This document shows, piece by piece, positions 22,303 to 35,516 of a stretch of 64,000 nucleotides of DNA. The stretch lies in the NCBI GenBank assembly GCA_903850425.1, contig CAINLR010000048.1, positions 1,364-65,363 on the forward strand, in the 5' to 3' direction. The notes beneath the pieces are model-generated. The model worked only from the letters and a program-made list of their open reading frames with translations, was not told the DNA's origin and did no database searches. Numbering within the stretch: position 1 is the first letter of the stretch; every line of letters starts with the position of its first letter. The DNA comes from an uncultured Verrucomicrobia subdivision 3 bacterium. GTDB taxonomy: Bacteria > Verrucomicrobiota > Verrucomicrobiia > Limisphaerales > UBA11358. The position numbers and the translations under genes are program-made.

Positions 22303-22483
22303 AACCACGGATGGACACGGATAAACACGGATGAAAAAGGGGCGCGGGCTTCAGCCCGCTTCGACTTGTGCTGACACTGATGTTTGCAGGAAACTGCGGG
22401 CCAAAGTGCGAGGAAGCGGAATTAATTCCGCGCTCCAGTTGCCGGTGTTTTGAATCCGTGTTCATCCGTGTTTATCCGTGGTT
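22303..22483. repeat. Nonamer inverted-repeat element enclosing a REP-like palindrome pair
   Basis: aaccacggatggacacggataaacacggat ... atccgtgttcatccgtgtttatccgtggtt; inside: gcgcgggcttcagcccgcttc / gaagcggaattaattccgcgc. Confidence 0.9.
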
Positions 22484-24978
22484 AAAATTTTCTGCGGCAA
22501 TTCAATCGTGAACCGGCTGCCTTTGCCCGGTTCGCTCTCCACCCGCACGCGACCGCCGTGGGCTTCGGCGATATGCTTGACGATGCTCAAGCCAATGCCA
22601 ACTCCTTGCGTTTCGCGGCGCAGATCCGAGCCCAGCCGATAAAACCGTTCAAAAATCTTCTCGTGCTCCGCCACCGGAATGCCCGGGCCGTGGTCGGCAA
22701 CGAAGAGGCGGCGGGTTGCTGCGTCGCCGCCATTTTGAATTTTTAATTTTTCATTTGTTTTTTCCATCCCCACCGCCACCGCTTGGCCTTTCGCCGAATG
22801 TTTGATGGCGTTGTCAATCAGGTTCACCAGCGCCTGCTGGAGCGCGCGCCCATCCACGTCCATTTCGGTGTTGGGCGTTGAAGGTTGAAGGTTGCAGGTT
22901 TCCAGTTTCACTCCTTTCTCAGCCGCGTAGGGTTCCATGAGTTTCACGGTGGTCTCCACCAGGGCGACGAGATCCGTCGGCTCGAATTCATATTGTTTGC
23001 GGCCTTGTTCGATGCGCGAGAAATCGAGCACGTTCTCAATCAGCGCCGACAGCCGCCGACATTCCTGCACAATGAAATGAAAGTATTCGCCCTGCTTTCC
23101 CGTCTCGGCAATTTTCCCGCGCTCCAGATTTTCCGCCATCAGCCGCACCGACGCGATGGGCGCACGCAATTCGTGCGAGACGCTGGAGACGAAGTTGGAT
23201 TTCATTTCGTTCAGTTGGAGTTGCCGGCGAAAGGCCCGGTGGGCGGTGATCAAGCCAAATAGCGCCGCCAACGCGGACAGCACGATCAGCGTGCCGAACA
23301 GCAGTGTGCGCTGGCTTTGGCGCGCGTAGAGAATTTCGGAACTGGCCAAGGAAATGCGGATATGAAACGGATAAGTGCGCTCGTTGAGCGGCAGGTTTTT
23401 CCACACTCCACCCGCCTGGCCCAGCACTGGCAAATTGCGGTTTGTGGTCGCGCCTACTGGTCCGGGCGATAGGGCAATTTGCTTTCCAGCCATGTCAAAT
23501 TCCACCAGCGCGTAAGGCGGCAGGGAAATTTCCGATTTGCGCACCGCCGCGGCGAGCGCCTTTTCCACCACGGCCTGCGGGAACAGCAGATAGTTGTAAT
23601 ACGCGGCCATCGGCGGAGTGGAATTGGTCGGAGTCTTCCGGCGATCACCGAGCAAAAGCAAAAACTTGCCGAGGCGGGAATCCACCCAGAACGGCCCGGC
23701 ATTCCAAGTATTCGTCGGATATTGTTCCCGAAAATCTTCCCAGACTTGGCGGGCGGCGGCGTTCGCATTCCACCAGGCTCTTAATGTCGCGGCGTAGGGT
23801 TCCTGCGAAGTTCCCCGCAAGACGCGTTCCGTTTCGGCGATGAGCATCGGCGAAAAAACTGAGGCGCGATATTGAATCATCCAGGCGATGGTATGGTAGC
23901 GGATAAAACTCTCCGGCAAGCCCGCGCCCTCCGGCAACCGGCGCAAGGCTTGATAACAAATCAATTGTCCCACCGGCAGTCCGGCTTCAGTCGGTTCGCT
24001 TGAATAACCCCATAGTGATCTGGACGCTTCGGCCATGGGTGCGGCGGCCTCGCTGGGAGCCATTCCGTGAGTTCTCGCCAGCAGCAAAAGATATTCCGCA
24101 TTCGCCCGCGCGCCTTGGGGCGGTTTTGAGGCGATGAATTTTTGCAGGGTCATTTGCGCGGCGGAAAAATCTTGGGCGGCGAATTCCGCTGCTTTCGCTG
24201 CCTGCCAAAGCTGCCGCTGTTCCGAAGTTAATTGCCCCAACCAATCGGGCGGTTGGGGCGGCATTTTTTCCGCTCGCTCAACCAGATAACCCTCGGCATC
24301 CGTCGGCGGCAGCGGGAGCACATCAATGTCGGGATTAGTTTGCTGCCAGATTTTCAGGCGCTGCCAGGCTTCGTCCTGGGACTTTTTGCCGCCTTGCCAT
24401 TCCATCACGCCTAGATCGGTTGACCGGTTGGAACGAAGTTCCTCGCTGACATTGCGATAAGCGCGCAACTGCTCCACGCCTTCCGCGCCGATGGCCAGCG
24501 TGAGCCGTTGCGCGAGCATTTCACAGGACTCACGCGCCTCCTGTTCCGCAAGCAGCCGGTCCTGCCGCAGCGAATACAAACCGAACCACGCCAGCCCCGC
24601 CACCGGCAGCAAAATCAAAACCGCCTGCCAGAAAAAAGCCGGCGGCGGACGTTTCGGATTTTTCGCCGCGAAGCCGGGTTCCGCGCGCATTTTTCTCCGC
24701 GCCGGAAGCAATTGGAAAAGGAAGATGCCAAAGCACAACGCCAAGCAGCCTGCTGATAAAAATTGATTGAACCGGGGCGCATCATGTCGCTGAAACCCGG
24801 CAACCACCATCAGCCCAAGGACAATGCCATAAAGGATGCACGCGGTGCGTAACCTGACGTAACGCGCCCGGCAGTCGGCGTTGCCCTGCGCCCGCCGCCG
24901 GCCATAGAACAGCGCCGCGCCGAACACCAGCAGCATCCACAGCAAGGCCTGCAACCAGAGGTAAGTTCCGTCAGTCAT
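22462..24978 (-). CDS. Membrane sensor histidine kinase
   Basis: SVSHELRAP (H box), NLIDNAIKHS (N box), DHGPGI, FERFYR, GVGIGLSIV; large periplasmic region. Confidence 0.93.
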   Translation of the reverse strand: MTDGTYLWLQALLWMLLVFGAALFYGRRRAQGNADCRARYVRLRTACILYGIVLGLMVVAGFQRHDAPRFNQFLSAGCLALCFGIFLFQLLPARRKMRAEPGFAAKNPKRPPPAFFWQAVLILLPVAGLAWFGLYSLRQDRLLAEQEARESCEMLAQRLTLAIGAEGVEQLRAYRNVSEELRSNRSTDLGVMEWQGGKKSQDEAWQRLKIWQQTNPDIDVLPLPPTDAEGYLVERAEKMPPQPPDWLGQLTSEQRQLWQAAKAAEFAAQDFSAAQMTLQKFIASKPPQGARANAEYLLLLARTHGMAPSEAAAPMAEASRSLWGYSSEPTEAGLPVGQLICYQALRRLPEGAGLPESFIRYHTIAWMIQYRASVFSPMLIAETERVLRGTSQEPYAATLRAWWNANAAARQVWEDFREQYPTNTWNAGPFWVDSRLGKFLLLLGDRRKTPTNSTPPMAAYYNYLLFPQAVVEKALAAAVRKSEISLPPYALVEFDMAGKQIALSPGPVGATTNRNLPVLGQAGGVWKNLPLNERTYPFHIRISLASSEILYARQSQRTLLFGTLIVLSALAALFGLITAHRAFRRQLQLNEMKSNFVSSVSHELRAPIASVRLMAENLERGKIAETGKQGEYFHFIVQECRRLSALIENVLDFSRIEQGRKQYEFEPTDLVALVETTVKLMEPYAAEKGVKLETCNLQPSTPNTEMDVDGRALQQALVNLIDNAIKHSAKGQAVAVGMEKTNEKLKIQNGGDAATRRLFVADHGPGIPVAEHEKIFERFYRLGSDLRRETQGVGIGLSIVKHIAEAHGGRVRVESEPGKGSRFTIELPQKILTTDKHG

Positions 24979-25392: not shown

Positions 25393-26751
25393 TCACCCAA
25401 ACACCGCCCGGCACACGATTACCGCCACGACCACGCTGGTGAAATCCGCCGTCAATCCCGCCAGCAGCGCGTGCCGCGTGCGCTTCACCGCGACCGAGCC
25501 GAAATAAACCGCCAGCACATAAAACGTCGTTTCCGTGCTGCCGTAGATGGTTCCCGCCGTGCGCGCGATTAGGCTGTCCGCGCCGAATTGCTGCACCAGT
25601 TCCGTGAAAAACCCGAGCGAGCCGCTGCCGCTCAACGGCCGCACCAAAACCATCGGCAGCAAATCGGTCGGGAAGCCGACGAGGTTCAGCACTGGCGACA
25701 GCACCTGGCTCAGCATTGCGATCCCGCCGGCGGCACGGAACATCCCGACCGCGACCAGCATCGCCACGAGATACGGAATGATGCGGATGGCCACATCAAA
25801 GCCTTCCTTCGCGCCGTCCACAAATTCCTCATAGACCTTCACGCGCCGCAGCGTGGCGAACAGCGGAATGGCCGAGAGCAGAAACGGAATGGCCAGCAGC
25901 GACACCGCGCCAACGCTGCGGATGAACAAACTTTTCCCCGCCAGATCCTCGGCCATCGGCCGGCCGAAGATTTCCGGAAACACCATCCGCAAAAACAGAA
26001 ACGCAAAGAACAGCAGGAACGCGGCGAAGATCAGCGCGCCCCACCATTGCAGCGGTTGCAGCGTCGCGGCTTCTTTCACGGCGGGCTTGTTAGCTTCGCT
26101 CGTGGCAGCCGACGCAGGAAGGCTTTGATCATTTTCCGCTTTCCGCTTTTCGCTTTCCGCCTTTTGCCGAAACATCGGCAGCTTCTCCAAAAATTTCGCC
26201 ATCAGCACGCCGGCCACCGCCGCGCACGCCGTGCAGATGATGGATGTGCCGACGATGGCCGTGGGATTCGTGGATTTGTTCGCCGCAAGAATGGCGATGG
26301 CCGTGACCGGAATGAGCTGGATGCCGCTGGTGTTGATGGCGAGAAAGGTGCACATCGCGTTGGTGGCGGTGCCGGGAGTTTTGTTCAGCGATTCCAAATC
26401 TTTCATCGCGCGCAGGCCGAGCGGTGTGGCGGCGTTGCCGAGGCCGAGCATGTTCGCGGCAATGTTCATCAGCATGGAACCCATCGCGGGATGTTCCGGC
26501 GGGACTTCTGGAAAAATCCGGCGCATGAGCGGACGCAACGCCCGCGCGAGCAACGCCACGAGTCCGGCGCGTTCCGCCAGCCGCATGATGCCCAGCCACA
26601 AAGCCATCACGCCGATGAGCGCAATGGCAATGCCGACCACGGCGGTGTTGGCCATCTCCAGCGCCTTGTCGGCGACTTCCTTGAGCTGGCCGTTCCAGCC
26701 GCCGATCAGCACGGCGCACAACATCAGCCCCAGCCAGATGTAATTCAGCAT
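25393..26751 (-). CDS. spmAB: SpmA-SpmB fusion (nucleoside recognition/Gate domain membrane protein)
   Basis: NIAANMLGLGNAATPLGL, AMCTFLAINTS, YEEFVDGAKEGF, RPLSGSGS, GSTETTFY. Confidence 0.9.
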   Translation of the reverse strand: MLNYIWLGLMLCAVLIGGWNGQLKEVADKALEMANTAVVGIAIALIGVMALWLGIMRLAERAGLVALLARALRPLMRRIFPEVPPEHPAMGSMLMNIAANMLGLGNAATPLGLRAMKDLESLNKTPGTATNAMCTFLAINTSGIQLIPVTAIAILAANKSTNPTAIVGTSIICTACAAVAGVLMAKFLEKLPMFRQKAESEKRKAENDQSLPASAATSEANKPAVKEAATLQPLQWWGALIFAAFLLFFAFLFLRMVFPEIFGRPMAEDLAGKSLFIRSVGAVSLLAIPFLLSAIPLFATLRRVKVYEEFVDGAKEGFDVAIRIIPYLVAMLVAVGMFRAAGGIAMLSQVLSPVLNLVGFPTDLLPMVLVRPLSGSGSLGFFTELVQQFGADSLIARTAGTIYGSTETTFYVLAVYFGSVAVKRTRHALLAGLTADFTSVVVAVIVCRAVFG

Positions 26752-26836
26752 GGGGGAAACGCTACAAAGTGTTTCCGCCAATGGCGAAATGAATCTGCTG
26801 GCCGCCGGGCTGGTTTCCAAACCGACGAGGAGGTTA

Positions 26837-26992
26837 AACCACGGATGGACACCGATGGACACGGATTACGGACAAGGCACGGAGCGCGGCTCGGTGAGCC
26901 GCAGCAGCACGGCGCTGGTTCAAACTTTGGCATTGCTGCGGGTCACAGACCCGCGCTTCGTCATCCGTGTTAATCCGCGTCCATCCGTGGTT
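26837..26992. repeat. Nonamer inverted-repeat element enclosing a second palindromic repeat
   Basis: aaccacggatggacaccgatggacacggat ... atccgtgttaatccgcgtccatccgtggtt; inside: agcgcggctcggtgagccgcagca / tgctgcgggtcacagacccgcgct. Confidence 0.9.
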
Positions 26993-27071: not shown

Positions 27072-30000
27072 CTATTGTCCCGCCGCCGCGTTGAGTTTCT
27101 CAGCCAGGGCGGCGGCCTCGGCTGCGCTGAAGCTGCCGGTAATTTGTCCAATGCCGGAGGTGATTTCCGACTGAAGGTTCGGAGCTGACATCAGTTGGCC
27201 ATCAACGATGATGGCGAGCCGCTGGTGCAACAGTGCCCGCGTGACTTGGCCAAATTTCTCGCGGCCGGCGTCAGTGAACGTGATTTCAATTTGCGGCTCA
27301 CCCTGGTTGCCGACGATCAATTTGGCAGACTGCAAATCTCGCTCGTCCAGCAAGGCCTGCTTCGCCACGAACAGCACTTCCTGACGGACTTGGCCGGTCG
27401 TTTTATTGGTGGAAAGGTCGGTCATTTTTTCTGCATCATCGGCCGTTTCATCCACGACCGCTCGCAGCTGGAAAATCGAAGCGGTTTTGGGTTTGAACCG
27501 GTCGGCCAGGCTTTGCAGCAACTTAGCGTCCGCCTCGCGCTGCTGGCGCTTCAGAAACGCGGCGTAATTTTTCACGGCGTCCGGCACGGCGGCGGGACTG
27601 ACCGGACACAACGCCACCGCTTGGCGAAACGCAAAATCTGCGGCGCGCGTCAGGCGTGCTTTTTCACCGGCGGTGGCGGCATGTTCCGCCCGCCACGCGT
27701 AGAGTCCAGCCTGGGAACTGCGCAGCTTGGAAAACATCCGGCTCGAATAATCGTTCTGCACAAAACCCGGATCGCCGGTGAAGCCGTGGAGATCGTGCCG
27801 GACAAAAACTTTCTCGGCGAACGCGGTGACCTCCTGGACGGACGTGTCGTCCTTCAGCCAATCGCCGATCGCGCCGGACAGGACTGTTTGCCAATGGGCG
27901 CGGTCCCGCTGCACCATCGCGTCAGACAATTCCGCCAGCGGCGGGCGGTTGATTTTGAAAATAAATCCGTGCGGTTCGAGGTGCGGATACATCCAGTCCA
28001 GCGGGAAACTTTCCTCGATGAAAAATTCTCGTCGGAGATTTTTGTCGAAGATGATTTTGACGAGCAGGGCGTTGATTTCCATCACGGCAGTCACGCCGCT
28101 CACTTGCACCCGGCCTTCCGTCACTTTGAGGTCTTCGCCGGGCTTGAGTTTGTCTTCTTTTTGGCGCACTTGCAGGTCGGCGACGTAATCCTGAAAGCAT
28201 TTTTGCGAGTCCTCGCCGGTGGGGATATAGAGAACATTGGTTCCAATTTGGTTTGCGCCCGCAGCCTTTTGCGCGCTAGCACGGAATTGAACGCTGGCCA
28301 GCAGCCCTTGCATGCGATCGTTGCGTTGCTGAGCGAATACTTTTGCCGTCTCGTTGGCAGCATTCCATTGCGGATCGTCCTTCTTGTTTGCCAACGCTTC
28401 CAGCTTCTTTTCTGCTTCCGACCACTTGGCACTCAAGGCTTGAAAAGCGCCATCCGTGCGGCATGCCTCGGCGAGTTGGGAGAATAGTTCCTTGTTTTCG
28501 CCATAAGTATTCCGCAGGTAATCCAGGTAGGTTCCATCCGCCAGCGCGTTTTGGGTCAGCGTGAAAAATGGCTCGCCTTTCACATGGGATTTCTGCAGCG
28601 CCGTGATGATGAAACGCCCGGGATCCGTGCCGCCAAAATACACACTGCCCGACGGGATGGATTGGAGAACGTCATCGGCGAAGGCCTTGGAATATTTCTC
28701 ATTACCCACGGCAAACGCCTCGCTGGCCCCGAAGGTTTCGCGCATGGGTTGCAGCCACATGCCGTGCGGATAGCCATTGGTGACCTTGCTTAAACCCAGG
28801 GTGTGGGCTTCCAAGTCCGCCCAACTATTTGTAACCGCCGGCCAATCGCCGGCCGCGGCGGCGGCAAAAAAGCGCGTGCAATCGGGCACTACCATCGTCT
28901 CGTTTGAGTTGGGATACCACTCGGCAAAATTCTTTTGATCAGTGGCAATCAGTTGCAGTTCCTGCGCCTGTTTTTCCCCGACAAAGCGTTTTAGTTGATC
29001 CGCGACTTGGGAAGTTTTCAGCGACCACGGCAGCGAAGAATTTTCGGCGGCATAACTTCCGATCAGCCAGCCCAAACTCAAAAAGGCCGCCACCAGACCG
29101 ACGACCGTCACCTTGGCGATCCGGCTCCGGTTACGGCGCCCGTCCAGAATTGCCTCCACCCGCTGTGCCAGGCCCGATGGACGCGCCATTGCAATCACGG
29201 CAACCTGCGGGATGCGACGAAAACTTTGGGCGATGTCCACCAGATGACCGGCGTAGTCCGAAGCTTTGCAGCCACTGTTCAAAACCAGGTCGTCGCACGC
29301 GCGTTCGCGCTCGACGCACATCCGCCGCGCCGCCAGCCAGACAAGCGGATTGAACCAGAACAACGCGCCGACGAGGTGCGCCGCGAGCTGCGTCAGGCAA
29401 TCCCAGCGCTTCACATGCGCGAGTTCATGCAGCAGGACAATCCGACGACGTTCCCCCGGCCAGTCGTTCGCATCCGCCGGCAACAAAACCACCGGACGCC
29501 GCCAGCCCCATGTCAGCGGCATCACATTTTCCACCGACTGCAACAACGTCACGGCTCGTCGCAACTGCAGGGTTTCGCCTGCTTCTTTCAACAGCGTCGT
29601 CCAATTCTCATCCTGCACCGCTGGCGCGCGACGGGAAAACCGATGGAGTTGAAGCTGGCCGCTGGTGATGGAAAACAAAACCAGGACGACGCCCGCGACC
29701 CAGGCGGCGAATCCGAGCACCAGCCAGCTTGCGCCAAAATGCGCGGTGAACTTGGGAGTGCCATCGGAGAGCTCGCGACCGGCGTTGATTTTTTCCTCGA
29801 TGGCGGGCGGCGTTTGCAGCGCGGCAGCGGCGGTGCCAAGCTGGTTGCCGGCCGCAAATTCCAATCCCAGCGCAACCTGATTGCCGTTTGCGTAAGTGGT
29901 GGAAACCGACCAAAGCGGTTTCTGCCACGAGGGCCGCGTGGAGGTCAGCAACGGGAGACAGGGCAATCCGGCCACGGCCAGCAGCCAGATCAGGTGTCGC

Positions 30001-30146
30001 GTGGCCGCCGATGCGCGCCGCCACAGCGTGCAGGTTCCGGCCGCCAGCGCGAGCACGACGAAGCTCTTGATTAAAGCGTCCAGAAACAGCGCCGTGAAAT
30101 GGGCAGACTGAAGGTAGTTTGCGGTTGGTTCGATCCATGAGTTCAT
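27072..30146 (-). CDS. BlaR1-like M56 peptidase fused to a YFGGTDPGRF domain and a SecD/SecF P1-head-like domain
   Basis: HELAHVKRWD zinc motif, FWFNPL, ERACDD; C-terminal I.FTD.G.EKF..VT....RLAIIVDG..SAP..SEI..G..QITG.F..AEA..LA..L. Confidence 0.88.
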   Translation of the reverse strand: MNSWIEPTANYLQSAHFTALFLDALIKSFVVLALAAGTCTLWRRASAATRHLIWLLAVAGLPCLPLLTSTRPSWQKPLWSVSTTYANGNQVALGLEFAAGNQLGTAAAALQTPPAIEEKINAGRELSDGTPKFTAHFGASWLVLGFAAWVAGVVLVLFSITSGQLQLHRFSRRAPAVQDENWTTLLKEAGETLQLRRAVTLLQSVENVMPLTWGWRRPVVLLPADANDWPGERRRIVLLHELAHVKRWDCLTQLAAHLVGALFWFNPLVWLAARRMCVERERACDDLVLNSGCKASDYAGHLVDIAQSFRRIPQVAVIAMARPSGLAQRVEAILDGRRNRSRIAKVTVVGLVAAFLSLGWLIGSYAAENSSLPWSLKTSQVADQLKRFVGEKQAQELQLIATDQKNFAEWYPNSNETMVVPDCTRFFAAAAAGDWPAVTNSWADLEAHTLGLSKVTNGYPHGMWLQPMRETFGASEAFAVGNEKYSKAFADDVLQSIPSGSVYFGGTDPGRFIITALQKSHVKGEPFFTLTQNALADGTYLDYLRNTYGENKELFSQLAEACRTDGAFQALSAKWSEAEKKLEALANKKDDPQWNAANETAKVFAQQRNDRMQGLLASVQFRASAQKAAGANQIGTNVLYIPTGEDSQKCFQDYVADLQVRQKEDKLKPGEDLKVTEGRVQVSGVTAVMEINALLVKIIFDKNLRREFFIEESFPLDWMYPHLEPHGFIFKINRPPLAELSDAMVQRDRAHWQTVLSGAIGDWLKDDTSVQEVTAFAEKVFVRHDLHGFTGDPGFVQNDYSSRMFSKLRSSQAGLYAWRAEHAATAGEKARLTRAADFAFRQAVALCPVSPAAVPDAVKNYAAFLKRQQREADAKLLQSLADRFKPKTASIFQLRAVVDETADDAEKMTDLSTNKTTGQVRQEVLFVAKQALLDERDLQSAKLIVGNQGEPQIEITFTDAGREKFGQVTRALLHQRLAIIVDGQLMSAPNLQSEITSGIGQITGSFSAAEAAALAEKLNAAAGQ

Positions 30147-30147
30147 A

Positions 30148-30531
30148 TCAGCGTCCTTCCTTCTTGGCTTGTTTGATGAGCTGTTGCAGTTGATTCAACT
30201 CCGTGTCCGAAAGCTTCGTGTCGTGCGCTTCCAGCAGCGCGGCCATCGCCTGCGTGGCGGACCCTTGGAAAAAAGTGGCGACGAGCCGCTTCAAGGCCGA
30301 CTTGCTGGCGGTTTCCCGCGACACGCACGGCAAATAAACGTAGCGCGCGCCATCCTGCCGATGCTTGATGTGCCCCTTGTCCTCCAAAATCCGCAGCAGC
30401 GCGCGAACGGATGAGTAGCTGGGCGGATCGGGCAGGGCCGCGCGGATTTCGACGGCGGCGGCGGCTTCTTTTTCGTGGAGCACGTCCATGATCTGGCGTT
30501 CGCGGCGGCTCAACTGATGTTCTCGGCTCAT
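30148..30531 (-). CDS. BlaI/MecI/CopY family repressor
   Basis: LSRRERQIMDVL, PSYSSVRALLRILEDKG, FFQGS; immediately upstream of the M56 gene. Confidence 0.93.
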   Translation of the reverse strand: MSREHQLSRRERQIMDVLHEKEAAAAVEIRAALPDPPSYSSVRALLRILEDKGHIKHRQDGARYVYLPCVSRETASKSALKRLVATFFQGSATQAMAALLEAHDTKLSDTELNQLQQLIKQAKKEGR

Positions 30532-30535
30532 GGGA

Positions 30536-30597
30536 TGTGCTAAATTTTTAGCACAATGCAGCAAGCTGGTCAATGGCAAATGCTAAAATTTTAGCAT
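30536..30597. promoter_or_regulatory. Two palindromic BlaI-type operators
   Basis: TGTGCTAAATTTTTAGCACA (30536..30555) and the perfect palindrome ATGCTAAAATTTTAGCAT (30580..30597). Confidence 0.78.
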
Positions 30598-30704
30598 GAT
30601 GGACTTCCGCATTGATTCCGGGAGCGTTCCTGACCAGGCGCAGATGATGAAGGAGCCGGCGCACGCGCGGCATTCTGGCATAGCGCCGGGCGGATGCGGG
30701 GATT

Positions 30705-32171
30705 TCATTTCAGCCGCTGGAATTGCTTCAGTTGCTCAACCAGTGAGCGCATTTGGGTGCCGGCATCACCCTTCATTGCCGGCATGTCGGCCGCCGTTTG
30801 CGCAATCAACAGCGCATCGGCGCTGCGGTTTTGCGCCAGCAGGAAGTTGACATACCGAAATACGGCTTCCGGCGAATACGGACACAGCGCCCACGCCTGG
30901 CGGAAGGCGAAGTCCGCTTCGCTCGCTAGGCGTTCCTTCTCGCTGCCAACGGTGCCATGGTCCACACGCCACGCATACAGTCCGGCGATGGATGAGCGCA
31001 GCTTGGAAAACATTTTGTGTGAGTATGCGTTGGTGATGAATTCCGGATCGCCTTTGAATCCGCTGAAGTCGTGCTGACCAAAAGTTTTCGTCGCAAAGGC
31101 GGCGACTTCAGCCACGGATGTTTCCGGTTTCAGCCAGTCGCCGATCATGGGCCGAACATACGCGGTCCAGTAATCATGATCTTTTTGCACAGCTTCAGCG
31201 GACAATGTTTCAAGCGGCTGCCGGTTCAGCTTGAAGATCAGGCCGTGCGGTTCGAGGTGCGGATACATCCAGTCGAGCGGGAAACTTTCCTCGATGAAAA
31301 ATTCCCGGGCCGGATTTTTGTCGCAGATGATTTTGGCCAGCAGCGCGTTGATTTGCATCACGGCCACCTGCCCGCTGACTTGGACGCGGCCGGCCGTGGT
31401 TTGCACGTCCTCGCCTGGCTTCAGCTTGTTTTGGGCGGCGCGTTCCGACGCGTCCTTGGTGTAATCCTCGAAGCACTGCTGCGAATCTTCGGGACTCGGA
31501 ATGTAAATCCGTTTGCCAAACATGCCGCGCAGGTAGTCCAGATAGGAGCCATCGGCCAGCGCATTTTGCGTGAGAATGAAGAAGGGGTCGCCGGCCGCGT
31601 GTGATTTGCTCAAGGCGGTCACGAGGAAGCGGCCCGGGTCGGTGCCGCCAAAATAAATGCTGCCGGCGGGAATGGACTGGATGATGTCGCGCCCGAACGC
31701 CGTGGCATACGGCTCGCCGCCCGTGGCGAATCCTTCCCAGACGCCATACACCTCCTTGGCGGCTTCCCAGGCGGGGCCGCGAAAGCCGACCGGATAGGAA
31801 GGCGGCGGCGTTGGCAGGCCAAGTTTGTTCCGCAGCGCGTGGAAGGCGGAGACCACCGCCTTGCCGAGTTTTCCCTGCGGCGCATTTGGGTCCCCGGACT
31901 GGTTGAGCCGGCTCATCGCGAAAAATGTATTGCTGACGGCCGGCCAGTTGCCGCGCCGGGCCGCCTGGAAAAATGCGGTCATCTCCGCCGGCGGCAGGTT
32001 GGTGGCGGCCCGCGCCTGCGCCTCCTTGTCGGCGATGAACTGCGTCAGTTGCCTCGCCGTTTCCGCGTTCTTGAGCGCGGTGAATGCCGTGGGCGGTTTT
32101 GGCGAACAGCCCGTGAGGCCGGTGGCAGCAGCCAGGATGACCAGTCCCCAGAATTTTCCGATGCGTTTCAT
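30705..32171 (-). CDS. Lipoprotein paralogous to the extracytoplasmic domain of the M56 protein, with TPR-like C-terminus
   Basis: True start MKRIGKFWGLVILAAATGLTGC (lipobox); YFGGTDPGRF, LTQNALADG.YLDYLR, EESFPLDWMYPHLEPHG, FSKLRSS. Confidence 0.85.
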   Translation of the reverse strand: MKRIGKFWGLVILAAATGLTGCSPKPPTAFTALKNAETARQLTQFIADKEAQARAATNLPPAEMTAFFQAARRGNWPAVSNTFFAMSRLNQSGDPNAPQGKLGKAVVSAFHALRNKLGLPTPPPSYPVGFRGPAWEAAKEVYGVWEGFATGGEPYATAFGRDIIQSIPAGSIYFGGTDPGRFLVTALSKSHAAGDPFFILTQNALADGSYLDYLRGMFGKRIYIPSPEDSQQCFEDYTKDASERAAQNKLKPGEDVQTTAGRVQVSGQVAVMQINALLAKIICDKNPAREFFIEESFPLDWMYPHLEPHGLIFKLNRQPLETLSAEAVQKDHDYWTAYVRPMIGDWLKPETSVAEVAAFATKTFGQHDFSGFKGDPEFITNAYSHKMFSKLRSSIAGLYAWRVDHGTVGSEKERLASEADFAFRQAWALCPYSPEAVFRYVNFLLAQNRSADALLIAQTAADMPAMKGDAGTQMRSLVEQLKQFQRLK

Positions 32172-32292
32172 GGAGCTTTCCTTTTGTTGGCAGTTGATGA
32201 TCGTGCGTTCCTGCCCAATAGACACCAAACCGGGCGGATTTTGTATAGCCTGTTTTTCGCGGGTCCACGGCAACCAGCCCGCCGACCGCTTG

Positions 32293-32339
32293 TTTAGAAT
32301 TATTCTAAATCTTGACTTAACCTCCCGGCCCGCTAGATT
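32293..32339 (+). promoter_or_regulatory. Per/ICE-type box plus sigma70-like promoter of fur-sufBC
   Basis: TTTAGAATTATTCTAAA (32293..32309), TTGACT (32312), 16-nt spacer, TAGATT (32334). Confidence 0.72.
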
Positions 32340-32348
32340 GCTGCCGCC

Positions 32349-32783
32349 ATGAAGCTGCGCAGCCCATCGCACGACGACCAGCACCTGACCGAACGGTTGG
32401 GCACCACCGGCTTGCGCCTCACGCCCCAGCGCCAGCAGGTCTATGACGTGTTGCGCCAGAAGCGCGATCATCCGACCGCCGAGGAAGTGTTCATCCGCGC
32501 CAAAAAGGCCATGCCGGAAATTTCCCACGCGACGGTCTATAACTGCCTCGATGCGCTGGTCAAATGCGGCCTGGCGCGGCAGGTCCAACTCGAACGCGGC
32601 GCCACCCGGTTTTGCCCGAACATGACGGAGCACGGCCATTTTCATTGCAGCGTCTGCGGCACCATTTACGATGTGGAGCTGCCCCACGAATTGCCGTGCG
32701 TGGCCATCCCGAGCGGGTTTGAGCCGCAGAGCTATGACGTGACGATTCACGGAACCTGCGCCGATTGCGCCCGGAAGAAATAA
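32349..32783 (+). CDS. Fur family regulator (PerR-like)
   Basis: RLTPQR, DHPTAEEV, ATVYN, HGHFHCSVCG, GTCADC. Confidence 0.92.
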   Translation: MKLRSPSHDDQHLTERLGTTGLRLTPQRQQVYDVLRQKRDHPTAEEVFIRAKKAMPEISHATVYNCLDALVKCGLARQVQLERGATRFCPNMTEHGHFHCSVCGTIYDVELPHELPCVAIPSGFEPQSYDVTIHGTCADCARKK

Positions 32784-32789
32784 CTTACG

Positions 32790-34238
32790 ATGAGCACTGC
32801 GACCGACACGATTGAGAGCCTGGTCAAACAGGAATACAAATACGGCTTCGTCACCGACGTCGAATCCGAGTCCACGCCGCCGGGCTTGAGCGAGGACACC
32901 ATCCGCCACATTTCGACCAAGAAGAACGAGCCGGCGTGGCTGACCGACTGGCGCATCAAGGCGTTCCGCTACTGGCAGACGATGCCGGAGCCGACCTGGC
33001 AGTTCGTCAAGTATCCGAAAATTGATTTTCAGGCCATCAGTTATTTTTCGCAGCCCAAGCCGAAAGGCGATGCGCCAAAAAGTCTGGACGAGGTAGATCC
33101 CAAGCTGCTCGAAACTTACGAGAAGCTTGGCATCCCGCTGCGCGAACGCGGCCGTCTGGCGGGCGTGGCGGTGGACGCGATTTTTGATTCCGTGAGCGTC
33201 GGCACGACGTATCGGGAGGATCTGGCGAAAAAGGGAATCATTTTCTGCTCGTTCAGCGAAGCGGTTCACAATCACCCCGACCTCGTCAAAAAATATCTCG
33301 GCTCGGTGGTGCCTTACACGGACAACTATTACGCCGCGCTAAATTCCGCCGTGTTCACCGACGGCTCGTTCTGCTACATCCCGAAGGGCGTGCGCTGTCC
33401 GATGGAGCTTTCCACCTACTTCCGCATCAACGCCGCCAAGTCCGGCCAGTTCGAGCGCACGCTGATCGTGGCGGACGATGGCGCTTCCGTGAGCTATCTC
33501 GAAGGCTGCACCGCGCCGATGCGCGACGAAAATCAATTGCACGCCGCCGTGGTGGAACTCGTCACCCACAACGACGCGCAAATCAAATACAGCACGGTGC
33601 AAAACTGGTATCCCGGCGACGAGAACGGCGTGGGCGGCATCTACAATTTCGTGACCAAGCGCGGTCTCTGCAAAGGCAAAAACTCGCGCATCACCTGGAC
33701 GCAAGTCGAGACCGGTTCGGCCATCACGTGGAAATATCCGAGTTGCATTTTGCTCGGCGACAATTCCAAGGGCGAATTTTATTCCGTCGCCGTGGTGAAC
33801 AACATGCAGCAGGCCGACACCGGCACGAAGATGATTCACATCGGCAAGAACACCAAGAGCACGATCATTTCGAAGGGCATTTCGGCCGGCCGCGGTCAGA
33901 ACAGCTATCGCGGCCTGGTGGAAATCCGCAAGAGCGCGGCGAACTCGCGCAACTTTTCGCAGTGCGACTCCATGCTCATCGGCGCCAAATGCGGGGCGCA
34001 CACGTTCCCGTATATCGAGGTGAAAAACACCTCGTCGTCCGTCGAGCACGAGGCTTCGACTTCCAAGATCGGCGAGGACCAGATTTTTTACTGCAACTCG
34101 CGCGGGCTGTCCACGCAGGACGCGGTGAACATGATCGTGAACGGCTTCTGCAAGGAAGTGTTCAAGGAACTGCCGATGGAGTTCGCCGTCGAAGCGCAGA
34201 AGCTGCTCGGCGTGAGTTTGGAAGGCAGCGTCGGCTAA
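32790..34238 (+). CDS. sufB: Fe-S cluster assembly protein SufB
   Basis: [52 protein letters not shown]. Confidence 0.97.
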
Positions 34239-34757: not shown

Positions 34758-35516
34758 ATGAGCAAAACGATATTAGAAATCAAGAATCTCTCGGCGGGTG
34801 TCGAGGGCAAACAAATCCTCAAAGGCGTCAGCCTCACCATCAACGCCGGCGAAGTCCACGCGGTCATGGGACCGAACGGTTCCGGCAAGAGCACGCTCGC
34901 GGCGGTGCTGGCCGGCCGCGACGGTTACGACATCACCGGCGGCGAAGTGCTTTACAACGGCAAAGACCTGCTCGACCTCGATCCCGAAGAGCGCGCCCGC
35001 GAAGGCGTGTTTCTCGCGTTTCAATATCCAGTCGAGATCCCCGGCGTGAACAGCACCTATTTTCTTAAGGCCGCGCTGAACGAAATCCGCAAGCACAAGG
35101 GCGAGTCGGAACTCGACGCGATTGAGTTTCTCGCGCTGGTGCGGGAGAAGATGAAGCTGTTGGAGTTGAAGGACGATCTGCTCAAGCGCTCGGTGAACGA
35201 AGGGTTTTCCGGCGGCGAAAAAAAACGCGCGGAAATTTTCCAGATGGCCGTGCTCGAACCCAAGCTCGCCATCCTCGACGAAACGGATTCCGGCCTGGAC
35301 ATTGACGCGCTCAAAGTCGTCAGCAACGGTGTGAACAAACTCAAGCGCGCCGACAACGCGCAGCTCGTCATCACGCATTACCAGCGGTTGCTGAACTACA
35401 TCGTGCCCGATTTTGTCCACGTTCTCGTGGATGGCCACGTCGTGAAATCCGGCGGCAAGGAACTCGCGCTCGAACTCGAGGCGAAAGGTTATGATTGGAT
35501 TCTGAAGGGGGCTTGA
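34758..35516 (+). CDS. sufC: Fe-S cluster assembly ATPase SufC
   Basis: GPNGSGKST, LAFQYPVEIPGV, VNEGFSGGEKKR, LDETDSGLDIDA, THYQRLL. Confidence 0.97.
   Translation: MSKTILEIKNLSAGVEGKQILKGVSLTINAGEVHAVMGPNGSGKSTLAAVLAGRDGYDITGGEVLYNGKDLLDLDPEERAREGVFLAFQYPVEIPGVNSTYFLKAALNEIRKHKGESELDAIEFLALVREKMKLLELKDDLLKRSVNEGFSGGEKKRAEIFQMAVLEPKLAILDETDSGLDIDALKVVSNGVNKLKRADNAQLVITHYQRLLNYIVPDFVHVLVDGHVVKSGGKELALELEAKGYDWILKGA

Follow-up and report, generated by a model that had tools for sequence, protein, structure and literature searches.

Signalling pairs made up of a BlaI-family repressor and a membrane-bound M56 zinc protease are best compared with BlaR1/BlaI and MecR1/MecI of Staphylococcus aureus, in which the protease module carries its HEXXH motif between transmembrane segments, the loop between the second and third of these segments points outward, a C-terminal sensor lies on the outside, and the repressor gene is adjacent, with palindromic operators at the promoter of the pair. 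The BlaR1 loop EL1 sits competitively in the groove of the penicillin-binding sensor, its displacement by the ligand is the signal, and BlaR1 cleaves BlaI directly (PMC9834060, in the sections available). Most pairs of this kind are not concerned with β-lactams, and almost none of their other signals have been identified so far. According to the accessible part of a preprint on the Clostridioides difficile pair CenIR, about 15,000 M56 proteins fall into 254 architectures, true BlaR proteins make up about 6%, and the outward part of CenR itself is short and predicted to be disordered (10.64898/2026.04.08.717257). Here we describe a BlaI/M56 pair in a 64,000-nucleotide (nt) stretch (hereafter the window; contig CAINLR010000048.1) of a lake-water Verrucomicrobium genome (6.9-Mb assembly, 197 contigs), in which the place of the sensor is taken by the soluble lobe of a TMEM260-like glycosyltransferase of the GT-C type, and in which the same lobe is encoded next door as a free lipoprotein. 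We consider it somewhat better than an even proposition that the pair is an autoregulated switch whose sensor lobe was copied from the neighbouring lipoprotein gene and senses an extended exported polypeptide; the homologies and the architecture are secure and the operator is well supported.

The genes for the lipoprotein, the repressor and the M56 protein are co-oriented and tightly packed on the minus strand (Table 1), and a single nucleotide separates the blaI stop codon from the M56 start codon. The sequence-only reading from which this work started had described exactly such a trio, with HELAH as the protease motif, and had stated that the M56 protein lacks a penicillin-binding sensor and ends in a domain resembling the P1 head of SecD/SecF; all of this holds. 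The repressor combines a full-length Penicillinase_R winged helix with predicted palindromic operators at the promoter it would regulate, as is characteristic of the BlaI/MecI/CopY family, and matches the NCBIfam models CopY_TcrY and BlaI, both below their cut-offs. In the M56 protein a simple Kyte-Doolittle scan, which is not a topology predictor, gives four transmembrane segments (15-42, 51-70, 137-165 and 343-367), so placed that the zinc-protease domain is cytoplasmic with HELAH in a long inner loop, whereas about 650 residues are outward. Residues 71-136 form an outward loop of 66 residues rich in Pro, Ala and Thr, the equivalent of EL1. The S. aureus BlaR1 structures 8EXS and 8EXP match the protein with E about 3e-7 (8EXS, 3.2e-7; residues 148-313 against 109-273). 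Transpeptidase or β-lactamase families were not found in it at E≤1 in Pfam, and the NCBIfam model blaR1_generic reaches 107.9 bits against a cut-off of 400, the match stopping at residue 423. Unlike BlaR1 and MecR1, the pair has neither a class D β-lactamase-like, penicillin-binding sensor nor a β-lactamase or penicillin-binding protein gene as target; its sensor consists of 650 amino acids (aa) of GT-C lobe and SecD head, and its operator reads TGCTAA-N4-TTAGCA. It resembles CenIR in that the outward part is not a β-lactam binder and differs from CenR in that this part is a large folded lobe of identifiable origin.

The last 100 residues of the M56 protein correspond to the P1 head of SecDF, as is also seen from the match to the Thermus SecDF P1 domain (3AQO, E 9.5e-12). 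Unlike SecDF, the protein has no SecD/SecF membrane domain of 12 transmembrane segments, all four of its segments belonging to the M56 module; the head here forms the end of an M56 sensor, and the NCBIfam SecD and SecDF models cover residues 886-1022 only, far under their cut-offs. Small free-standing SecD P1-head-like proteins occur in the same genome (contig C1, L090:1638-2339) and in related genomes (G305:C4:561974-562393 and G302:C4:209012-209407), the latter 41-46% identical to the M56 tail, so that both outward modules of the M56 protein also exist as separate proteins.

The repressor gene is preceded by two copies of the palindrome, at 30581-30596 and 30538-30553 (TGCTAAAATTTTAGCA and TGCTAAAAATTTAGCA), which lie together with the promoter in the 125 nt separating the lipoprotein stop codon from the blaI start. 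They bracket a sigma-70-like promoter given by a promoter scan (-35 TTGACC, 30573-30568; -10 AAAAAT, 30549-30544), one palindrome lying just upstream of the -35-like and the other over the -10-like hexamer. The exact pattern occurs only twice in the 6.9-Mb genome, both times at this promoter. Among 77 related loci fetched from other genomes, 17 with and 60 without blaI, it was found at 26 sites, every one either immediately ahead of a blaI frame or inside its first part; 16 of the 17 blaI loci carry it (the seventeenth comes without upstream sequence) and none of the 60 others, and in ten loci the two copies are 42-43 nt apart. Furthermore, blaI stands directly upstream of 17 of the 18 M56-lobe genes in the fetched loci, the eighteenth being the second copy of a tandem. 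Operators and coupling are therefore conserved, and blaI-M56 is evidently an autoregulated pair; this pattern gives good support to the palindromes as operators. Five further genomic sites have one mismatch, compared with 20 for a reversed-pattern control, and are unconvincing as a regulon: the two inspected are placed at the ends of genes or ahead of an Ig/DUF1349 protein, and no clear gene start is seen at a site on contig C65. The genome encodes two more blaI/M56 pairs (C141:198225-199627 and C74:31024-32481), with M56 frames of 1607 and 1138 aa that lack the lobe and so have outward parts of other kinds.

The lipoprotein begins with a signal peptide that ends in the lipobox cysteine (MKRIGKFWGLVILAAATGLTGC) and is devoid of any other transmembrane segment as judged by hydropathy. 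It is colinear with the M56 ectodomain in two blocks found by BLASTP, residues 222-480 with 639-900 (59% identity over 263 aa, E 4e-100) and 32-220 with 375-550 (40% over 206 aa, E 9e-40), between which the M56 protein has an insert of about 88 aa (551-638). The colinearity reported from inspection of the letters is thus far beyond chance, and each of the five motifs quoted for it is present in both proteins. An exhaustive search of 1.84 billion cluster representatives returned 1423 relatives of the lipoprotein at E≤0.001. When the best 150 of these were classed by phmmer against the window's own modules, the lobe followed an M56 module in 28 and a GT-C module in 13, and 109 had neither; the last group comprises 92 proteins with the domain alone, 13 with an extra tail of tetratricopeptide repeats (TPR) and four others. 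A word-based search, in which 8000 candidates were scored, yielded at least 3435 relatives at E≤0.001 (clusters at 90% identity). Among the 120 matches listed, the relatives are 435-530 aa long, 56-62% identical to the lipoprotein and unnamed or hypothetical apart from a few JGI records called 'Lpp'; 101 of these top 120 have a lipobox, the misses being mainly due to odd start calls or PAGC. A scan of the phylum gave matches at E≤1e-10 in 181 of 301 genomes, mostly to the GT-C form and to true SecD, and is too coarse for the M56 fusion.

The origin of the lobe is indicated by a third gene. A tblastn search of the genome with the lipoprotein finds three genes in total, those of the lipoprotein, the M56 protein and, on another contig, a protein of 1278 aa (P0124) with about 15 hydrophobic segments and a PF11028 domain (TMEM260-like, former DUF2723; residues 65-229, E 1.6e-20). 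The C-terminal soluble part of P0124 shares 49% identity with the lipoprotein across 271 aa (E 3e-86), and a further block (38% over 81 aa) contains GGTDPGRF and TQNALADGTYLDYLR. The link to DUF2723/TMEM260 proteins, which the sequence-only reading had suggested, is therefore substantiated at the sequence level by a protein of the same genome. The membrane module of P0124 matches human TMEM260, a protein O-mannosyltransferase (PDB 9RQL), with E 4.7e-12 as a single sequence, and a profile of 13 GT-C proteins does so with E 4.9e-20 across the membrane part only. P0124 shares the order of membrane module, Rossmann-like domain and TPR with the human enzyme (9RQL/9RQM/9RQN), from which the lipoprotein and the M56 sensor differ by the missing membrane module and an extra N-terminal helical subdomain; PF11028 matches neither of them, and neither has the multi-pass GT-C membrane module. 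The soluble Rossmann-like plus TPR lobe typical of TMEM260-like GT-C proteins is recognizable in both from the identity to P0124, the tree described below and the structural model. Two results from the Atlas serve as leads only, namely feature scores of 0.91-0.94 to clusters with PF28495 (TMEM260_2) and structure matches with a TM-score by query of 0.84 for an M56 cluster and 0.63-0.64 for PF11028 clusters. A profile comparison of the lobe with a 955-aa TMEM260-like paralogue of the same genome was not significant (probability 0.5), which indicates that the lobe is specific to one GT-C subfamily. Immediately downstream of the GT-C gene, and in the same orientation, come grpE and dnaJ in this genome (contig C17, L011:5736-11440) and in four of five others fetched (L092, L094, L095 and L096), the fifth having a flank of 929 nt; this arrangement suggests co-expression with heat-shock chaperones and forms a circumstantial link to protein folding.

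An AlphaFold2 model of the lipoprotein, computed with 65 free-form sequences (mean predicted local distance difference test score, pLDDT, 93.6; predicted template-modelling score 0.89), shows helices at the N terminus (subdomain of about 29-166), seven short strands in a Rossmann-like α/β core (about 168-320) and TPR-like helices up to the C terminus (about 325-488). The luminal lobe of human TMEM260 is built from a Rossmann-like 'palm' followed by TPR 'fingers' (10.64898/2026.03.17.711096, accessible part), so that the predicted fold would show the same order, α/β core and then TPR-like helices. The N-terminal helical subdomain is present in the free and the M56 forms but not in the GT-C form, whose core follows the membrane module instead. 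Conservation was assessed by placing 67 free, 29 M56 and 14 GT-C sequences, the window's own three proteins included, on one profile. GGTDPGR is kept in all three classes, with Asp178 in 53 of 67 free, 26 of 29 M56 and 9 of 10 aligned GT-C sequences, the remaining four GT-C sequences being fragments without this region. Likewise retained throughout are Q202-N203, E294-E295-S296, P298, W301, P304, P308 and G310 as well as R392, Y399, W401, R402 and Q425. That the enzyme, the sensor and the lipoprotein share these residues points to an enzyme-relevant surface under continued selection in the latter two. In the part of the human TMEM260 study that was available, an acceptor peptide of 21 residues is held in an extended conformation by fingers and palm, the palm residue D441 (beside R439, G440 and P443) is the catalytic base and the sugar donor is bound by the membrane module (10.64898/2026.03.17.711096). 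Since the free and the M56 forms lack this donor-binding module they cannot transfer sugar by themselves, and by analogy the remaining lobe may be a binder of extended polypeptide.

Put together, we propose the following course of events. The repressor would bind the two TGCTAA-N4-TTAGCA palindromes that bracket its own promoter, and the M56 membrane zinc protease would remove it once the outward part is triggered. The outward part is a copy of the periplasmic lobe of a TMEM260-like GT-C protein, with helical subdomain, Rossmann-like palm and TPR fingers, followed by the SecD P1-head-like domain. The pair would then act as a switch of the envelope-stress type. Its most likely signal would be exported polypeptide that is extended in the periplasm, unfolded and possibly also unglycosylated, perhaps an unmodified client of the GT-C enzyme; this input is suggested by the origin of the lobe, by its retained conserved surface and by the added P1 head. 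The P1 head of SecDF is thought to contact the translocating polypeptide. By analogy with BlaR1, loop 71-136 may sit in the groove until a ligand displaces it, and such a mechanism would suit a peptide-binding lobe.

A number of observations weigh against this proposal. The assignment of the ligand is drawn by analogy from the human TMEM260 lobe, to which no alignment was obtained by sequence or profile searches, the lobes having diverged too far, and sequence and profile searches of the PDB with the lobe gave TPR repeats only. The fold comparison with TMEM260 structures that had been suggested for the shared domain brought no TMEM260 match in the fold libraries (entries to April 2026): with the whole lipoprotein model Foldseek found nothing in the PDB at E≤0.001, and VIA wide gave only TPR-type matches to the C-terminal helices (Z≤10). 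Equating Asp178 with human D441 would be a guess, and the extra N-terminal subdomain may alter what the groove sees. The SecD head is uncommon in M56-lobe proteins (3 of 28 representatives; 2 of 18 in the fetched loci), which shows that this domain is not essential to the design. The only visible regulon is the blaI-M56 pair itself. Finally, a paper characterizing bacterial TMEM260-like enzymes was not found in the open-access full text, and in the accessible part of a PNAS 2023 paper bacterial relatives of TMEM260 are mentioned solely as 'distant homologs in bacteria'.

BlaI/M56 pairs without a β-lactam sensor are a known and large class. The combination of a GT-C-lobe sensor with the same lobe as a neighbouring free lipoprotein was not found in print, and the statement that no system of this architecture has been described stands as far as open-access full text is concerned. 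Neither is a TMEM260-type lobe among the named M56 architectures with at least 100 entries in the accessible part of the CenIR preprint (10.64898/2026.04.08.717257). The acceptor-binding lobe of TMEM260-type glycosyltransferases also lives alone as a large lipoprotein family and has been recruited into signalling. The identifiable origin of the sensor, with a eukaryotic relative of solved structure, allows a concrete and testable hypothesis on the ligand, and the lobe family gives a handle on the bacterial TMEM260-like enzymes.

Table 1. Features of the locus in the window (positions of the 64,000-nt stretch).
Feature	Position	Strand	Basis or remark
M56 protein, 1024 aa	27072-30146	-	PF05569, E 4.2e-35 at residues 121-333
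M56 membrane-protease module, residues 1-367	29046-30146	-	PF05569; hydropathy; HELAH at 240
M56 ectodomain lobe, residues 368-905	27432-29045	-	BLASTP homology to the lipoprotein; insert of about 88 aa at 551-638
SecDF P1-head-like C-terminal domain, residues 921-1022	27081-27386	-	PF22599, E 6.9e-23
BlaI/MecI/CopY-family winged-helix repressor, 127 aa	30148-30531	-	PF03965, E 2.6e-27, full length
blaI promoter region with two 16-nt palindromes TGCTAA-N4-TTAGCA, 43 nt apart	30538-30596	-	Sequence and promoter scan
Free lipoprotein, 488 aa	30705-32171	-	Signal peptide and lipobox LTGC, Cys22
Fur-box-like palindrome TTAGAATAATTCTAA	32294-32308	.	In the 177-nt region between the lipoprotein and fur-like genes; outside the switch, given as context
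fur-like gene	32349-32783	divergent from lipoprotein gene	PF01475, E 1.3e-22
sufB	32790-34238		
sufC	34758-35516		

A more specific version of the proposal, which we think unlikely though worth keeping in sight, would make the pair a surveillance device for the substrates of the GT-C enzyme: its acceptor-gripping lobe would be mounted on a BlaR-type protease, extended or unglycosylated clients would displace the loop, the repressor would be cleaved, and the lipoprotein would act as a holdase-like buffer. If true, the device would be the periplasmic equivalent, in a bacterium, of sensing unfolded proteins or glycosylation stress.

The lipoprotein itself could be part of the switch, as a BlaI-controlled effector, as a decoy that buffers the ligand or as a co-receptor of the sensor lobe, and it was in such a role, compared to that of BlaZ, that the sequence-only reading had cast it. 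Its gene has the same orientation and lies 125 nt upstream of blaI without a predicted terminator-like site in between, and the ligand-facing motifs are kept in lipoprotein and sensor alike, so that the two could plausibly compete for one ligand. The operators and the promoter, however, lie downstream of the lipoprotein gene, and the pattern is found neither upstream of it, nor elsewhere in the genome, nor in the 60 loci without blaI. The 77 loci contain 69 free-form genes, and the neighbourhood survey, which had been named as a test of co-occurrence, gives a divided answer: blaI accompanies the free gene in 7 of 65 neighbourhoods, six in the order of the window (L013, L018, L042, L054, L071 and L077) and one with blaI-M56 ahead of the free gene (L016), so the trio does recur, whereas 58 of 65 free genes have no blaI/M56 neighbour. 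Five genomes whose free gene has no neighbouring blaI were searched. In all of them a single GT-C copy, one or two free copies and M56 proteins without the lobe were present, and none of the five has an M56-lobe fusion. Conversely, eight of the 17 M56-lobe loci have no free gene in the flanks covered. With operators downstream and none upstream, and with the free gene independent of the pair, the lipoprotein is probably not an output of the switch; a role like that of BlaZ is not supported, and the various forms of participation appear quite improbable. Within our preferred reading of an autoregulated, polypeptide-sensing pair, the lipoprotein is probably an independent binder of the same type of ligand.

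In the simplest account, the free gene is older and more widely distributed and belongs to a locus that it shares with fur-like and suf genes. Out of 66 free genes with at least 700 nt of upstream flank, 46 face a fur-like gene no more than about 2.5 kb away, which is transcribed divergently and has sufB and sufC behind it, and nine of the 17 M56-lobe loci are situated at the same place, the other eight being elsewhere or having flanks too short to tell. Most likely, the sensor lobe reached the M56 gene by on-the-spot duplication of the neighbouring free gene in some lineages. A quick, unrooted maximum-likelihood tree of the C-terminal part (98 rows) unites the GT-C copies in one clade (Shimodaira-Hasegawa-like approximate likelihood ratio test, 100) and scatters the M56 copies among the free ones; as a point against the proposed course, the tree is compatible with a single or several origins of the M56 lobe and does not resolve the direction of descent. 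Tandem copies, three free-form genes in one locus (L086:5575-9770) and two M56-lobe genes behind one blaI in another (L053:3370-8353), indicate that the locus is prone to tandem duplication.

Another view of the ligand, for which we see little probability, is that the lobe senses a sugar-bearing molecule such as a glycan, a glycosylated protein or a polyprenyl-linked sugar and that the switch reports on the glycan status of the envelope. The lobe does derive from a glycosyltransferase, and the best structural matches of its isolated core (residues 160-345, pLDDT 95.1) in VIA wide are to the periplasmic domains of ArnT (Z 4.1), ALG12 (3.9) and PglB (3.4). These values are below any meaningful level, however, and Foldseek returned no match for the core. 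Moreover, it is the membrane module that holds the donor in human TMEM260, according to the available part of that study, while the lobe holds the peptide (10.64898/2026.03.17.711096), and this module is missing here.

The company of the free gene raises the question whether the locus serves iron, iron-sulfur or redox homeostasis, the lipoprotein and the copied sensor handling something tied to the fur-like/suf operon. The frequencies of fur-like, sufB and sufC genes near free genes and of M56-lobe genes at this locus would fit, as would the Fur-box-like palindrome in the shared intergenic region. Synteny is nevertheless the sole basis of this explanation, and eight of 17 M56-lobe loci lie elsewhere. 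The palindrome is nearer to the start codon of the fur-like gene (41 nt) than to that of the lipoprotein gene (123 nt), adjoins the fur-like gene as TTAGAATnATTCTAA in most related fur-bearing loci and may thus serve fur-suf alone. No metal-binding family or motif was found in the lobe in Pfam and NCBIfam. We judge a function of this kind very unlikely. That the M56 protein is not a transducer at all and instead, at a level set by BlaI, serves to position the lobe and the SecD head at the membrane, as an anchored protease or scaffold, is scarcely credible, for although autoregulation is the only regulation visible and many M56 proteins end in a non-sensor domain such as TonB_C (10.64898/2026.04.08.717257, accessible part), the coupling to blaI is strict (17 of 18 genes), start and stop codons are 1 nt apart, and topology and HELAH are BlaR1-like.

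The loci nearest to that of the window come from Limisphaerales and Verrucomicrobiia metagenome bins. Contigs with verrucomicrobial synteny were also met in bins titled Bifidobacteriaceae, Pseudomonadales, Dongiaceae, Limnocylindrales, Methylomirabilota, Acidiferrales and Acidoferrum (L032, L052, L059, L073, L074, L034, L053, L048, L049, L056 and L066); these are probably mis-binned or mislabelled contigs rather than cases of gene transfer. The stretch itself was found in four DNA runs of lake-water metagenomes, all from the same study, and among the listed runs none is RNA.

Two long reading frames in the window are not genes, a frame of 856 aa (30705-33275) that includes the lipoprotein and overruns the fur-like gene, and one of 461 aa within 25588-26973, opposite a Gate-domain gene; such long spurious frames arise from the high G+C content. 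Downstream of the locus, a histidine kinase of 838 aa (22462-24978; HisKA and HATPase_c) has a long N-terminal part of no known family, and many related loci have it as well, again downstream of the lipoprotein or M56 gene, among them L013, L014, L015, L021, L022, L032, L071 and L077.

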